A stretch of DNA of 19,442 bases from a virus (lineage: Duplodnaviria > Heunggongvirae > Uroviricota > Caudoviricetes), in IMG/VR virus record IMGVR_UViG_2609459832_000003, positions 1-19,442 of that record. The stretch is one strand, 5' to 3'. Numbering within the stretch: position 1 is the first letter of the stretch; every line of letters starts with the position of its first letter. Positions 1 through 6,626 of the stretch are shown here, piece after piece. Both the position numbers and the translations under genes were made by a program. The notes beneath the pieces were generated by a model that was not told the DNA's origin, made no database searches, and saw nothing but the letters and a program-made list of their open reading frames with translations.

Positions 1-582
1 CACTGTTCCACAGTACATATCACCCAGCATTAACGTGCCGGATGCACCCGATGAAAAAATATTGTTACCACCACCAATACTCACCTGAATTTTGTCAGTC
101 CGGTCATCTGATACATAAAACGATGTATTTCCAACTAATGAGCGGTTGCAGTACAGACTGGCTGAGACATAGCCGTTTTCGTTTCGCGTTGCGAAAATTT
201 CATAGTAATAACTGGCTGCTTCATCAGGATACGGGGTTGTAAATGAATAGCCATTAATCCTGATGTGGGATGGCGAAGATGAATATTTCTTTCCCGCACT
301 TAATGTCAGACGAAATCCCAGCTGTACAGCTGAGGCTTTTAAGTCCGGAAGTGTGCTGTACAGTGTGACATATGAGGGTGTCGTAAAAATCAGCCCCGTT
401 CTTTCTACAGTATTTACGGCCTGAGTGCCACGACAGACGGATGTTACAGAACCGGACATATCATTGATAAGCGTGACACCGTTTTCGTTCAGTGCTGAAA
501 TAATATTTGTTGAATAATAGTTCTCGCACAATCCCTCATTCGCCGGAATTTGTCGAAAACTTTCGAGTTTAATAATATTCAA
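1..582 (-). CDS. Partial CDS (N-terminal ~194 aa; gene continues past the window start): putative tail fiber / receptor-binding protein
   Basis: Minus-strand frame has no stop from 600 down to 1 (checked triplet by triplet). TTG start at 580-582 sits 6 nt after an AAGGAGAG Shine-Dalgarno and 24 nt after the stop of the upstream baseplate gene. Position right after the gp48-like gene is where Mu/P2-type clusters put the fiber. Missing from the ORF track because it has no ATG start and no stop in the window. G+C looks lower (~40-45% in sampled lines) than the rest of the tail operon. Confidence 0.45.
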   Translation of the reverse strand, partial: MNIIKLESFRQIPANEGLCENYYSTNIISALNENGVTLINDMSGSVTSVCRGTQAVNTVERTGLIFTTPSYVTLYSTLPDLKASAVQLGFRLTLSAGKKYSSSPSHIRINGYSFTTPYPDEAASYYYEIFATRNENGYVSASLYCNRSLVGNTSFYVSDDRTDKIQVSIGGGNNIFSSGASGTLMLGDMYCGTV

Positions 583-605
583 AGCGGCTCTCCTTTTATT
601 TTATG

Positions 606-1565
606 TCATTCGGACGTGACCACAGCAAAATGCAGTCCCGGGTGATTAATCAATAACGGTTCACGGGTTCTGCTGGCTGTCTGCAACTGCATACTGTTAA
701 CCGGTACGGGGGAGCGGGTCCTGTATCCCGTCTGCAACTGTGCGCTGTTCATGGTCATGGGGTCCGTTGTCGGCAGACCTGAGTGCAATTGCGCCCTGCT
801 GAGTACCAGTGGTTCTGCCATCGGACGGGCGGCATAAAAGTTAATCCGGTTAATTGTCAGCGGCTTACCTGTCAGTGCCGGAACAACCGCAAAATGAACA
901 CCTGTATGATTAATCGCTAATGGCTCAGTCGTCTTGTGTCCGGCCTGAAAGGAGAGGCTGTTTATAGTCAGGGCGGCTTGTTGCCCTTCACCAGACTCAT
1001 CCGGATATGCAAAAAGGACAACAGTATGCGACGGACATAATTTATTAATCACGCACTCCGCAACCGTATCACCCCACGTCCGGATCGGTGTGTTACAGGT
1101 GTCCGAACATGTCTGCCACTGAGCACCGGCATCCACCGGCAACGTCACACGCCAGAAATAACGCCAGCGATCACCCCATTCCGGATCGGGGCTTGCATCC
1201 AGGTGCTGGAACTGTTCGATCGTCACGCCGGTATATCCCAGCGCCTCAAGCTGCTCCAGGAAGAACTGCTCATTTATGCCACCAGCCACATTGGCTTTTG
1301 CTTCCAGCCGTTGCTGACGCTGGCGTAATGTCTGGGCTCCAACAGGAGAGCAGGTGTCAGGTAAACCATACAATTCTTCATAACGTTCAATCAGCTCTGT
1401 TGACTGACCAGGATCGATTTCAGCCATCAGTTCATCAGCCCGCTGATGAACACGTACAAGCGATGGTGCCAGACCATCAAGCACGCCGTCGGTATCGCTC
1501 CATGCAGGCCCCGGCGGCATCAGTCCGTACAGCAGCTTTGTATAATCATCCTGTAACGAATCCAT
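606..1565 (-). CDS. Baseplate protein, Mu gp48 / P2 gpI-like (DUF2313-type N-terminal domain) with a repeat-containing C-terminal extension
   Basis: N-terminus (MDSLQDDYTKLLYGLMPPGPAWS...ELYGLPDTCSP) matches the DUF2313/YmfQ-type proteins that follow baseplate J in Mu-like tails. Start overlaps the stop of the J-like gene (TAATG at 1563-1567). At 319 aa it is longer than typical ~190-aa homologues. Confidence 0.7.
   Translation of the reverse strand: MDSLQDDYTKLLYGLMPPGPAWSDTDGVLDGLAPSLVRVHQRADELMAEIDPGQSTELIERYEELYGLPDTCSPVGAQTLRQRQQRLEAKANVAGGINEQFFLEQLEALGYTGVTIEQFQHLDASPDPEWGDRWRYFWRVTLPVDAGAQWQTCSDTCNTPIRTWGDTVAECVINKLCPSHTVVLFAYPDESGEGQQAALTINSLSFQAGHKTTEPLAINHTGVHFAVVPALTGKPLTINRINFYAARPMAEPLVLSRAQLHSGLPTTDPMTMNSAQLQTGYRTRSPVPVNSMQLQTASRTREPLLINHPGLHFAVVTSE
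621..928. repeat. Imperfect direct repeats inside the 3' end of the gp48-like gene
   Basis: A ~45-bp imperfect direct repeat at ~621-664 and ~884-928 (shared core tgattaatc) encodes EPLLINHPGLHFAVV / EPLAINHTGVHFAVV. Three ~25-bp units at 681-704, 732-754 and 778-804 (ctgcaactg...) encode the xxAQLQTG-like motifs. Confidence 0.6.
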
Positions 1566-2647
1566 TATTTACTCCTTGCCGGGTCATAAGCCTGCCAGGT
1601 GATCTCGCCGAGCACCGGAAGCTCGGTCTCCCCCAGGTCAATATCCGATGAAGGGACGATTAACCGGTGGGCCACTTCACCAGCAGACAAACTGATGGCC
1701 TCACTGATTCTGGACAGATACATACGCCCCTCTGGCACACCATCCCGTAACATCAGTGCATTCAGCTCTGCTTTTATTGCAGTCCTGATCTGCGGTGTGT
1801 CTTTCGATAATGCAATCGTCATCGGGATGACTTTTTCTGTGGCACCGAATACATACAATCCGCTTCCGGCAACCGGTGTCAGAGGAAGAATGTGCTCTCT
1901 GACTGCATTAATGACGCTTTCATCCGGAGCCGGATGTTCCGGATCGTTTGTCGCCACCATCACCCCTACCGTTCCTATTCCTCTCCAGTGACGGTATGTC
2001 CATGCGCGCGTAATACCAGGCACTTCTTTAGCCCAGACGACATAATCCCCGTCAGCCCCGCCCTGAGGCGTCCAGTAATACCGCTCAATGACGCGGGCGC
2101 GCCACGTTTCCAGATCTTCAGTATCGAATCCGCCGGTCAGGGTATCAGCCACACCGGACGACGGCAGACCATTCACCGGCGTGACCAGGATTAATGCCGT
2201 ACCGTCGTCAGCATTACCGACCGCACCTGCAGTTGAGCAGGCGATCGGCACGCGCAGGACACCACCGGAGCTGGTTGCATCGGCAGTTGCTGTGTACTGA
2301 ACCAGGTCATCGCGCTGAATAACACTCCCGGCGGTCACCTTCAGGTCATCGCTGACATCTTCCCAGCGCATATACCCGCTGGCAGCCGTGGCCCCCTTGC
2401 GCGGACACCGTTTCATCGCAGCATGTCGCGCCAGCCAGGATTCATCACACCGGTCAGGCAGTATGTTCATTGCCAGATAATCGATGTAACCGTAAACCGT
2501 ATGCAGCGCCGCCGCATACACTTTTGCCCGCACGTCTTCATCCATGCGCCGGAGTGGGTCACTGACGTCCAGCCTGGCGAATAAATCGTTACGGAGCATA
2601 CTGATATTTTCTGCCAGCGTCGGGCGCTGAAACTCACTGTCCGCCAT
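1565..2647 (-). CDS. Baseplate J-like protein (Mu gp47 / P2 gpJ family)
   Basis: 360-aa ORF in the expected position between gp46-like and gp48-like genes, overlapping both neighbours. Size and synteny fit the baseplate J family. Confidence 0.8.
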   Translation of the reverse strand: MADSEFQRPTLAENISMLRNDLFARLDVSDPLRRMDEDVRAKVYAAALHTVYGYIDYLAMNILPDRCDESWLARHAAMKRCPRKGATAASGYMRWEDVSDDLKVTAGSVIQRDDLVQYTATADATSSGGVLRVPIACSTAGAVGNADDGTALILVTPVNGLPSSGVADTLTGGFDTEDLETWRARVIERYYWTPQGGADGDYVVWAKEVPGITRAWTYRHWRGIGTVGVMVATNDPEHPAPDESVINAVREHILPLTPVAGSGLYVFGATEKVIPMTIALSKDTPQIRTAIKAELNALMLRDGVPEGRMYLSRISEAISLSAGEVAHRLIVPSSDIDLGETELPVLGEITWQAYDPARSK

Positions 2648-4686: not shown

Positions 4687-6011
4687 TGCACTGGCACCTT
4701 CAGAGGGATCACCGGCACAAAGCCGGGATGCGTAATGGCATTACGCCGGATAATGTCCTCGTCACGCGCCGCGTTATCAAACCAGGTCGCCGCCAGCACC
4801 AGCGCGGGTAAAACCTCATCCGGTGTGCGCTGAATGATCCGTGCAGACTGTTCAAGGCGCGTGTTGATATCCGCATTCAGATCTGCTTTCACCCGGCGCA
4901 GCGCCAGAAACAGCGCATCACTGGTTGTACGGGACAACTCCTTATCAATTGCCGTATTCAGTGTGTCGCGAATGTCGGTCAGTTCTTCCCACGTCGGCAG
5001 GTCAACCGTGTTTTTCACCGCCGGTGCATTGTTCAGTGCCGGATGCGTGACGGAAGGCCAGCCAGTGCTCTGCGCAGGTGTTGTTGCCTGCCCCACTGTG
5101 GCATTCTGCATCACTGCGGAAGTTGTTGGCGCAGGCAATCGGGTGACGGCATACGCCGCTTCGCTGATTGCGGTCGTACGAAGGGTGCTGGCAACCACGT
5201 TACGCTGCTGCGTCGCCGTGGCGGTAGTTTTACTGTCCGTTTTCCAGATGCCGCGCGGTTGCAGATCGCTGCCGAGGCTGACACCGGAAAGCGTTTTGAT
5301 CATGGTGACAAGGTCGCTGGCGTTACCATAAAGGCGTTTCCCGGTACGCCACATTTTCTGCACCTGCTCAACGAAATTTTTGCCTGACGATGGTGGCGGC
5401 AGAAGTACCGAGATATCCCCCTGCAACAGCCTGGCAGCATCCGATACGGCAGAATCCACCACTTTCATCGCATCAGAAACATACCCAAGCATTGTGCTGG
5501 CATTACCTACGACGTCGTTCTGCACAAAATCTGCCACGCCATCGATACTGAAACCACTGAAGCTGTCACTGATGCAGTCATCCAGTGCAGAACAGGATGA
5601 CATCAGCGTCTGCGCCGTCGCCGCACCTGAAGTGGGGTAAGAGAGTTCTCCCGCTTCGACAAACTTCAGGTCAAAGCGGACAATACGCCCTTCGCTCTTC
5701 GATGTGCTGACCCGAACCTCCCCGTCAACACAGACTTTCAGCTCACCGTATGTCGGATGGACAAGCGTGCCGGGACCGGGTTTATTCAGCGCGTCAATCA
5801 GGCGATCGCGCTGGTCAAAGCAGTCATCTCCCACCACATAAGCCGTGATGGACGGGCGGAAAGTGATTTTCCCCAGGTCTTCGGTATAGGGTTTGTCACG
5901 GTTCGGGTATTCGTGCGTTTCCACACGACGACCGGTTCCCGCACTTTCTTCTTCAACCTTAAACGGCACGCCGCGAAATGACGCGTCCTGAAGTCTGTCT
6001 TTCCACGTCAT
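4683..6011 (-). CDS. DNA circulation protein (Mu gp43 'N' family)
   Basis: N-terminus MTWKDRLQDASFRGVPFKV...GRRVETHEYPNRDKPYTEDLG matches the conserved DNA-circulation N-terminal domain. 442 aa. GGAG Shine-Dalgarno 6 nt upstream of the ATG at 6011. Confidence 0.8.
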   Translation of the reverse strand: MTWKDRLQDASFRGVPFKVEEESAGTGRRVETHEYPNRDKPYTEDLGKITFRPSITAYVVGDDCFDQRDRLIDALNKPGPGTLVHPTYGELKVCVDGEVRVSTSKSEGRIVRFDLKFVEAGELSYPTSGAATAQTLMSSCSALDDCISDSFSGFSIDGVADFVQNDVVGNASTMLGYVSDAMKVVDSAVSDAARLLQGDISVLLPPPSSGKNFVEQVQKMWRTGKRLYGNASDLVTMIKTLSGVSLGSDLQPRGIWKTDSKTTATATQQRNVVASTLRTTAISEAAYAVTRLPAPTTSAVMQNATVGQATTPAQSTGWPSVTHPALNNAPAVKNTVDLPTWEELTDIRDTLNTAIDKELSRTTSDALFLALRRVKADLNADINTRLEQSARIIQRTPDEVLPALVLAATWFDNAARDEDIIRRNAITHPGFVPVIPLKVPVQ

Positions 6012-6101: not shown

Positions 6102-6596
6102 CTATCTGAGTTGAACATCAATGGAATAAACATCACCACTCTTTATAAATTTAGAATCTGTCCTTTCATCAAAAGATTCAAATGACTGTACATTTAAAAA
6201 CTTTTTCATTTTATTTTCAAAAATACTTTCATTAACACCAGTTAAATATTTGAATGCTCTACCAGCAAGGACCTCATTACTTAAATCCATTGTGTTTTTA
6301 TTGTCTTTGAAAAACCAAACAATAACCTTTTGTGGGCATGATGGATTATAAACAGATATATAAAACTGCGGCTCATATTTTTCATCAGCATCATCACTGA
6401 GCATTTCTTCAGAAGATAATTCTCTTCTGAATTCATATTGCCGCTTAGTGATTCCTTCATCCTTTATTATCTCTTGCTTAACTGGTGCAATACCTATAGA
6501 AGAGATTAATTCTGACTCATTAAAGTTGAACTTACACTCTTCCGCAGCCAAGTTAAAAGATAAAAGTGCAGATATAAAAAAAACAAAGATACGCAT
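6102..6596 (-). CDS. Hypothetical secreted (signal-peptide) protein of unknown function, encoded by an AT-rich moron
   Basis: Complete ORF, stop at 6102. Longest ORF starts at 6614 (MIEGMIM...), but the ATG at 6596 has a GAAGGG Shine-Dalgarno 6 nt upstream and gives a textbook signal peptide: MR + IFVFFISALLSF + NLA/AEE. Very AT-rich codon usage unlike all neighbours. Two Cys in the mature part. No family recognised from memory. Confidence 0.7.
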   Translation of the reverse strand: MRIFVFFISALLSFNLAAEECKFNFNESELISSIGIAPVKQEIIKDEGITKRQYEFRRELSSEEMLSDDADEKYEPQFYISVYNPSCPQKVIVWFFKDNKNTMDLSNEVLAGRAFKYLTGVNESIFENKMKKFLNVQSFESFDERTDSKFIKSGDVYSIDVQLR

Positions 6597-6626
6597 AATC
6601 ATCCCTTCAATCATTTGTAAGGAATG

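Follow-up and report, generated by a model that had tools for sequence, protein, structure and literature searches.

The host range of contractile-tailed phages and tailocins is usually credited to the fibre docked on gp48. Other arrangements are known: in G7C (gp66/gp63.1) and on the CBA120 tailspikes, receptor-binding proteins are adaptor-docked and branched via T4 gp10-like docking domains, and in the T2-type gp37-gp38 system the product of a downstream gene, an adhesin, attaches to the fibre at its C-terminal tip. The fibre shafts of adenovirus and reovirus are triple beta-spirals, built from repeats of 15-17 aa ('x-P-L-x-V-...-L-x-L') that need three chains. In phage Mu, each wedge holds one gp48, and the trimeric fibre (gp49) is anchored on an internal gp48 loop, residues 133-155 (PMC11915804).

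The stretch of DNA analysed here (the window, 19,442 nt) belongs to a contractile-tailed E. coli prophage, whose late structural region it represents; all genes lie on the minus strand. Their products include terminase, portal, protease, HK97-type capsid protein, sheath, tube, tape measure, DNA-circularisation protein and gp44-, gp45-, gp46- and gp47-like baseplate proteins. Of the complete E. coli genomes, ~1% contain near-identical copies, and many of these genomes are from ETEC strains. A 170-aa ORF without a Pfam match lies between the tape-measure and DNA-circularisation genes (6102-6614, minus strand). In the otherwise near-identical prophage of strain FDAARGOS_1077 (L002), the DNA-circularisation gene directly adjoins the capsid gene (L002 11644-14438), and the tape-measure, tube, sheath and head-tail genes present in the window are lost.

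A gp48-type wedge protein with a C-terminal extension

The last baseplate gene of the window (606-1565, minus strand; stop codon 606-608) encodes a 319-aa gp48-type baseplate wedge protein with a repeat extension, as judged from the ORF translation, Pfam PF10076 and phrog_203 (baseplate wedge subunit). Phage_Mu_Gp48 (PF10076) covers aa 13-187 with 88 bits against a gathering cutoff of 37.4. The upstream neighbour is the gp47/Baseplate_J wedge protein (1565-2647, minus strand; PF04865, 182 bits), and the adjoining ORFs match Pfam GP46, Gp45, Baseplate_J, gp44-like and DNA_circ_N, which places the gene directly after Baseplate_J (gp47) in a gp44-gp45-gp46-gp47 baseplate operon. By sequence and position, the N-terminal 189 aa are thus a bona fide member of the family of Mu gp48, P2 gpI and R-pyocin Tri2 (BW3, PF10076, 'YmfQ family').

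This domain (aa 1-189; 999-1565, minus strand) is complete, as shown by its alignment to residues 12-177 of PDB 9ki1_a (E 2.7e-8) and by comparison with phiP27 L53. Mu gp48 (PDB 9ki1), the only solved relative, has 180 aa and is present in six chains; L53, the closest phage counterpart, has 196 aa. These lengths bear out the earlier note's remark that gp48-type proteins usually measure ~190 aa: canonical BW3 members end at ~180-196 aa, whereas the window protein adds 130 aa that include 17-aa repeats. L53 tracks the window domain closely up to ...YPDE and then runs for 7 more residues to its end (...VVLFSYPDEDEDAQD). The window protein there reads ...VVLFAYPDE, followed by SGEGQQAA and 122 further residues. 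Nucleotide similarity to phiP27 ends at window 996, and the Mu gp48 chain ends exactly at the start point of the extension. Since L53 ends where the window protein reads on, nothing is missing from the gp48 domain, and the extension has been added to it. The Mu fibre-docking loop (residues 133-155) aligns with window aa ~146-168; both share a TP(L/I)R motif, and this region is closely like that of L53.

The earlier note had taken the protein for the last baseplate component before the fibre, which does not hold, as a 349-aa gene of family phrog_8291 sits between gp48 and the canonical fibre gene. In L002, a 99.9% identical locus, gp48 with its extension is followed by the 349-aa gene, which starts with TTG 23 nt beyond the stop codon, then by the gene for a 369-aa fibre, a homologue of phiP27 L54, and by that for a tail-fibre assembly protein (Tfa); in phiP27 the order is gp48, fibre, Tfa. 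Relative to phiP27, the extension and the phrog_8291 gene are an insertion between gp48 and the canonical fibre gene, with the gp48 domain and the fibre both kept.

In many E. coli genomes, RefSeq PGAP labels the gene a pseudogene ('YmfQ family protein, incomplete, missing C-terminus'; L002 7981-8565, corresponding to window 981-1565) and leaves the 390-nt extension without annotation. As the ORF is unbroken and conserved, the label is apparently a systematic mis-annotation, and our finding corrects the recurrent description of the gene as a truncated pseudogene.

Seven repeat units of about 17 residues

The extension begins with the linker SGEGQQAA (aa 190-197; 975-998, minus strand), assigned from the translation and the comparison with L53, between the gp48 domain and the repeats. 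It continues as seven tandem ~17-aa units of the pattern P-L-x-I/V-N-x-x-x-L-Q-x-G-x-x-x-x-E: unit 1 (aa 198-214, ALTINSLSFQAGHKTTE), unit 2 (aa 215-234, 20 aa, PLAINHTGVHFAVVPALTGK), unit 3 (aa 235-251, PLTINRINFYAARPMAE), unit 4 (aa 252-268, PLVLSRAQLHSGLPTTD), unit 5 (aa 269-285, PMTMNSAQLQTGYRTRS), unit 6 (aa 286-302, PVPVNSMQLQTASRTRE) and the terminal unit 7 (aa 303-319, PLLINHPGLHFAVVTSE). Segmentation into units and comparison with homologues divide the array into two parts. Units 1-2 (aa 198-234; 864-974, minus strand) are lineage-specific and consist of a regular unit, a 'terminal-type' unit (PLAINHTGVHFAVV) and the linker PALTGK. Units 3-7 (aa 235-319; 609-863, minus strand) form a portable five-unit module of four regular units and the terminal unit, and align unit for unit with the five-unit modules of P0002, L018, L011 and L050. 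The 'HFAVV' form of the unit ends the module in all homologues and appears here already at unit 2, which marks the window extension as a 2+5 composite.

The repeats stand well above background. In a BLOSUM62 self-comparison of 12-mers, the best match scored 53 (EPLAINHTGVHF / EPLLINHPGLHF, offset 88 aa) and the next family 41 (offset 17 aa), against a mean of 24.6, an sd of 3.2 and a maximum of 36 in 300 shuffles. Strong self-matches fall almost exclusively at offsets of 17, 51, 54, 71 or 88 aa, and the 17-aa unit recurs in homologues of the module. The C-terminal repeats proposed in the earlier note are therefore real, with two amendments: its two motif types are variants of one 17-aa unit, and the extent it gave, 606-930, covers the array largely, with unit 1 reaching window 974 and the extension starting at ~998.

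At the DNA level, the periodicity is faint. A 45-nt pair (619-663 / 883-927) shares 73% identity, with 33 of 45 positions matching against a maximum of 29 in 500 shuffles; a 12-nt motif recurs at 51-nt spacing, and the peaks of self-identity lie at 264 and 51 nt. For window 400-1700, Tandem Repeats Finder (TRF) returned 0 rows and hence no array, and the units are pairwise 29-65% identical in DNA. The direct repeats that had been read from the DNA thus exist but are weak. The amino-acid period is kept as the DNA has diverged, and omega in the repeats is 0.24-0.59, so selection acts on the protein: the repeats are under purifying selection.

Unit number differs among homologues, as the earlier note anticipated, and ranges from 4 to 7: seven units in the window, L003 and L159, six in L167, five in L010, L011, the fibre carriers and P0002, and four in L012 and P0014. 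Mu-type gp48 proteins thus occur with 7 (L003) or 6 (L167) units and a sister lineage with 5 (L011) or 4 (L012). L010 contains a genuine 51-bp tandem array (4.5 copies, 92% identity); together with the counts of 5 and 4, this indicates that copy-number change by unit recombination does occur in the repeat family. For the window gene, length variation through DNA repeats is not plausible, given the divergence of its units, the empty TRF result and the lack of any length change among the E. coli records listed, which were drawn from 58 covering at least 80% of the query. The suggestion of recombinational length variation therefore fails for this gene and applies to the sister lineage.

It is very improbable that such variation, by slippage or recombination, is the main role of the repeats as a contingency locus. 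The differences in unit number (7 vs 6, L003 and L167; 5 vs 4, L011 and L012) and the 92% array of L010 would fit such a locus, but the low DNA identity between the window units, the missing TRF array and the alignment of the E. coli records without length change speak against it, as does the recurrence of five units on fibre carriers, which suggests a defined structure. The available data point to a stable unit number within lineages.

Structure prediction gave little to build on. AlphaFold2 on the 319-aa protein as a single sequence reached a pLDDT of 35 and was unusable; the extension, modelled with an alignment of 8 sequences (the only eligible ones), reached a pLDDT of 48 and a pTM of 0.42, and its all-beta arrangement with ~two short strands per unit is not trustworthy. 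A Foldseek comparison of this low-confidence model with the PDB returned nothing below E=2. The extension had no match in Pfam (E<=10) or in profile searches of the PDB, and tblastn against GenBank phages gave a chance-level match only. By eye, the period and the P-L-x-V...L pattern resemble the adenovirus and reovirus shaft repeats. We rejected a triple beta-spiral shaft: there was no Pfam match at E<=10, PDB searches with a profile of the module and with a two-unit profile (profiles A2 and A5) found no shaft protein, and gp48 is present once per wedge.

Co-occurrence of the repeat module and the phrog_8291 gene

The window ends inside the gene downstream of gp48 and holds its first 194 codons (1-582, minus strand); the full-length L002 copy, to which the window part is 99.5% identical, encodes 349 aa from a TTG start and matches phrog_8291 with E 8.5e-247. 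This family, of ~350 aa, has no assigned function. A 23-nt intergenic spacer (583-605, minus strand) contains the Shine-Dalgarno sequence AAGGAGAG (595-588). Across the six lineages compared (window, L003, L011, L018, L050 and L062), the carrier stop codon and the start of the phrog_8291-like partner gene are 14-30 nt apart. Five of them use a TTG start (window 580-582) behind a good Shine-Dalgarno sequence, with a spacer of 22-30 nt. This conserved weak start may set the stoichiometry or reflect translational coupling. The partner protein had no match in Pfam (including GP38) or the PDB, and no tblastn match in 50,697 GenBank phage records; its fold may be of a jelly-roll or lectin-like type. 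Conservation of the family is even from end to end (43-62% identity between lineages; conserved N-terminus MNIIKLESFRQIPAN), without the variable tip typical of receptor-binding proteins. Among GTDB species representatives, the gene was found in Escherichia albertii only. No prior description of the repeat module or the partner appeared in the literature searched.

To follow the pairing, we used two sets of loci. In the carrier-selected set, comprising the window and 146 loci fetched around relatives of module carriers, 14 of 147 sources carried the module, and in all 14 a phrog_8291-like gene starts just after the module stop codon. Another 127 related loci have neither component, and six have the partner without the module, five of them cut at a contig end and one a remnant. 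In the partner-selected set of 28 loci, the ORF immediately upstream carries the module in 25, and one locus is cut by a contig end. The remaining two, L158 and L159, encode a fourth gp48 type with a 2+5 module, then a fibre, Tfa and only then the partner, so the association survives loss of adjacency. All 27 evaluable partner-selected loci thus have the module in the same tail cluster. The loci all stem from Escherichia and its close relatives and should be counted as about eight independent contexts instead of 40 separate events.

Other carriers were revealed by an exhaustive HMMER search of 1.84 billion representative proteins; word-indexed protein searches had returned only a few E. coli fragments. 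The module occurred in few clusters only, always at the extreme C-terminus. Weaker HMMER matches were discarded as eukaryotic low-complexity proteins or as the P0002 fibre motif 'SPxFTGxPxxPT...IANxxFV'. The carriers are at least 8 different proteins, including four unrelated gp48 lineages (SfV/phiP27-type, Mu-type, a third type with an Ig-like middle domain, P0012, and the fourth type named above), two tail-fibre N-terminal types, namely 'Prophage tail fibre N-terminal' (PF08400) with Phage_fiber_2 (P0009, P0010) and a P2 gpH-like fibre N-terminus (PF12571; P0013), and a 133-aa protein without a recognised domain (P0014). The window protein has no match to Phage_fiber_2 (PF03406), a repeat restricted to other carriers, such as P0002, P0009 and P0010. 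In the PF08400-fibre contexts, the partner is the last tail gene, the usual place of the distal fibre part. Since the association spans eight unrelated carriers, modules down to ~30% identical and partners down to 43%, its age far exceeds that of any single transfer. Covariation between module and partner (mirror-tree logic) gave no signal; in L062, a 97%-identical partner stands beside a module only ~30% identical to that of the window.

A recent exchange is visible in L003, a true Mu-like prophage with com and mom genes. Its gp48 domain is barely alignable with that of the window, yet extension and downstream gene are shared by both prophages. The two match at 97.7% over window 1-949, and units 3-7 show 100% nucleotide identity across 255 nt, whereas units 1-2 have diverged (dS 1.16, dN 0.28, omega 0.24). 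It follows that the five-unit module moved together with the partner gene in a recent exchange; purifying selection acts on units 1-2, which are specific to the lineage. L003 also holds an incomplete 'prophage tail fiber N-terminal domain' gene (2243-2581) just beyond Tfa and before com and mom, on the strand of the tail genes and with a 14-nt overlap with the Tfa gene; a second fibre gene may have left this remnant.

A different arrangement is found in five IMG/VR sister loci of the P0012 lineage (L013-L017; ORFs starting at 5989). Here, gp48 is covalently fused to Big_2 and BspA-type LRR_5 domains (848-1474 aa), the repeat module and the phrog_8291 gene are both absent, and the fibre and Tfa genes are kept downstream. 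The size differences stem from large internal duplications, and the products would be wedge proteins with covalent adhesin-like domains. These loci and the window have in common the gp48 C-terminus as attachment point for an accessory surface domain, with the payload being covalent in L013-L017. The fusions suggest that the gp48 C-terminus is a display site for such domains.

Candidate role of the cassette

The comparative evidence for what appears to be a portable two-part cassette is solid. We favour, with a probability of about 0.55, the reading that the repeats are a portable docking module that would recruit the phrog_8291 protein, as an accessory and probably host-binding component, to the virion. 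The 17-aa array would act as an adaptor written in frame onto the 3' end of whichever baseplate-proximal tail protein lies upstream, and would bring the ~350-aa, putatively all-beta phrog_8291 product to the particle. In the window, the carrier is gp48, expected once per wedge and six times per baseplate, with its internal loop already holding the canonical fibre; the phage might thus display six accessory, probably host-surface-binding, proteins beside six ordinary fibres. The region equivalent to the Mu loop and the fibre gene are both kept, which makes the extension an additional site, more likely for an extra protein than for the fibre. In the earlier note, the repeats were proposed to dock the fibre or contact a receptor. 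Docking remains the best-supported role, and the docked item is more likely the 349-aa protein, since the fibre-loop region is retained; the extension probably anchors this partner. Some observations sit less easily with docking. The module is found both on gp48, a monomer in each wedge, and on fibres, whose characterised examples (Mu gp49) are trimers, and this is awkward for a single structural model. Covariation is also lacking, though a specific interface often leaves such a signal, and the even conservation of the partner is not what a receptor-binding protein with a variable tip would show. A wider version of the docking reading accommodates both carrier types: the five-unit array would be a general 'plug' that mounts one family of accessory adhesins non-covalently on a monomeric wedge protein or a trimeric fibre, and that moves between unrelated phages by recombination inside the repeats. 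We hold this version only tentatively.

The pairing can be read in other ways. The array might itself be the functional tip, for example a small beta-structured element that binds the host or contacts the membrane, with the 350-aa protein as its dedicated assembly chaperone or cap, like Tfa or gp38-type proteins. The partner gene comes directly after the module, behind a short spacer and with a weak TTG start in five of six lineages; fibre chaperone genes occupy this position, and the protein is evenly conserved, not tip-variable. We nevertheless regard this as unlikely: the 350-aa partner is four times larger than the 85-aa module, a normal Caudo_TAP chaperone is already present for the fibre, fibre and Tfa genes separate partner from module in L159, and the sister phages with large adhesin-like LRR_5 domains at the equivalent position point to the display of a payload. 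Still less probable is that the repeats are a mere spacer, stalk or extra baseplate contact, with the partner attached elsewhere or a non-structural moron and the linkage a legacy of mobile-block ancestry. The missing covariation and the block shared by the window and L003 through recent recombination would agree with such a history, but the association holds across eight unrelated carriers, with identities down to ~30% for modules and 43% for partners, and, truncations and the one remnant aside, neither component occurs without the other among the loci examined.

That the extension is an accident of annotation or evolution, a gp48 pseudogene fused to junk by deletion, is the least probable of all and largely refuted. 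In its favour, PGAP marks the copies in many E. coli genomes as partial and does not annotate the extension, and some host prophages are degraded, as in L002 without its sheath, tube and tape-measure genes. Yet the gp48 domain reaches to within 7 residues of the point where its phiP27 counterpart ends, the frame is open in every copy, and PGAP itself annotates the 324-aa protein of the Mu-type prophage as intact. Furthermore, the 17-aa period persists in the protein while the DNA diverges (omega 0.24), and the window itself has a complete structural module that runs from terminase and portal through to the baseplate.

Compared with described systems, the N-terminal domain is an ordinary gp48/gpI/YmfQ member; what is new is the very compact repeat element, which in its presumed function resembles adaptor-mounted receptor-binding proteins and gp37-gp38 tip capping. 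With the G7C and CBA120 adaptors, it would share the logic of a conserved docking element on a tail protein that mounts a separately encoded, swappable host-binding protein. Unlike those adaptors, to which it has no sequence relationship, the putative docking element is a short C-terminal repeat array and occurs on both wedge and fibre carriers. The likeness to T2 gp37-gp38 lies in the gene order, in a small C-terminal element that would be capped by the product of the next gene, and in the gp38-like genes of the L147 cluster; in contrast to T2, the partner has no GP38 Pfam match, and the carrier in the window is a baseplate wedge protein instead of a fibre.

If the docking reading is right, the wedge protein offers a second modular attachment site, two host-recognition systems are possible in these E. 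coli prophages, which are common in ETEC, and accessory binding proteins could be swapped without rebuilding the fibre; the 85-aa module would also serve phage or tailocin engineering as a tag whose partner is defined. Should the plug version hold, simple Mu-type baseplates would carry two independent sets of host-recognition proteins, and the module would be a transferable docking tag for host-range engineering.

The cassette was also met in settings that differ from the intact prophages. On Logan contig ERR10789655_5293 (L147, 1-7463), from a phage type that differs from the prophages, the module is carried by a small protein of 133 aa, the partner encoded next has 348 aa, and the cluster further encodes a 1386-aa fibre (Phage_fiber_2 and Peptidase_S74) and two gp38-like genes. 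Among L005-L009 are several draft E. coli assemblies with a break in the partner gene, and some complete genomes have 2-5 matching places; together, these suggest that the cassette is often multi-copy within one genome. Finally, an E. coli prophage remnant (L151; 2367-3512 and 6001-7803) carries type II heat-labile enterotoxin genes (Pfam Enterotoxin_a, LT-IIB), with a deletion-fused copy of the module (P0050) and a 387-aa partner gene a few kb away.
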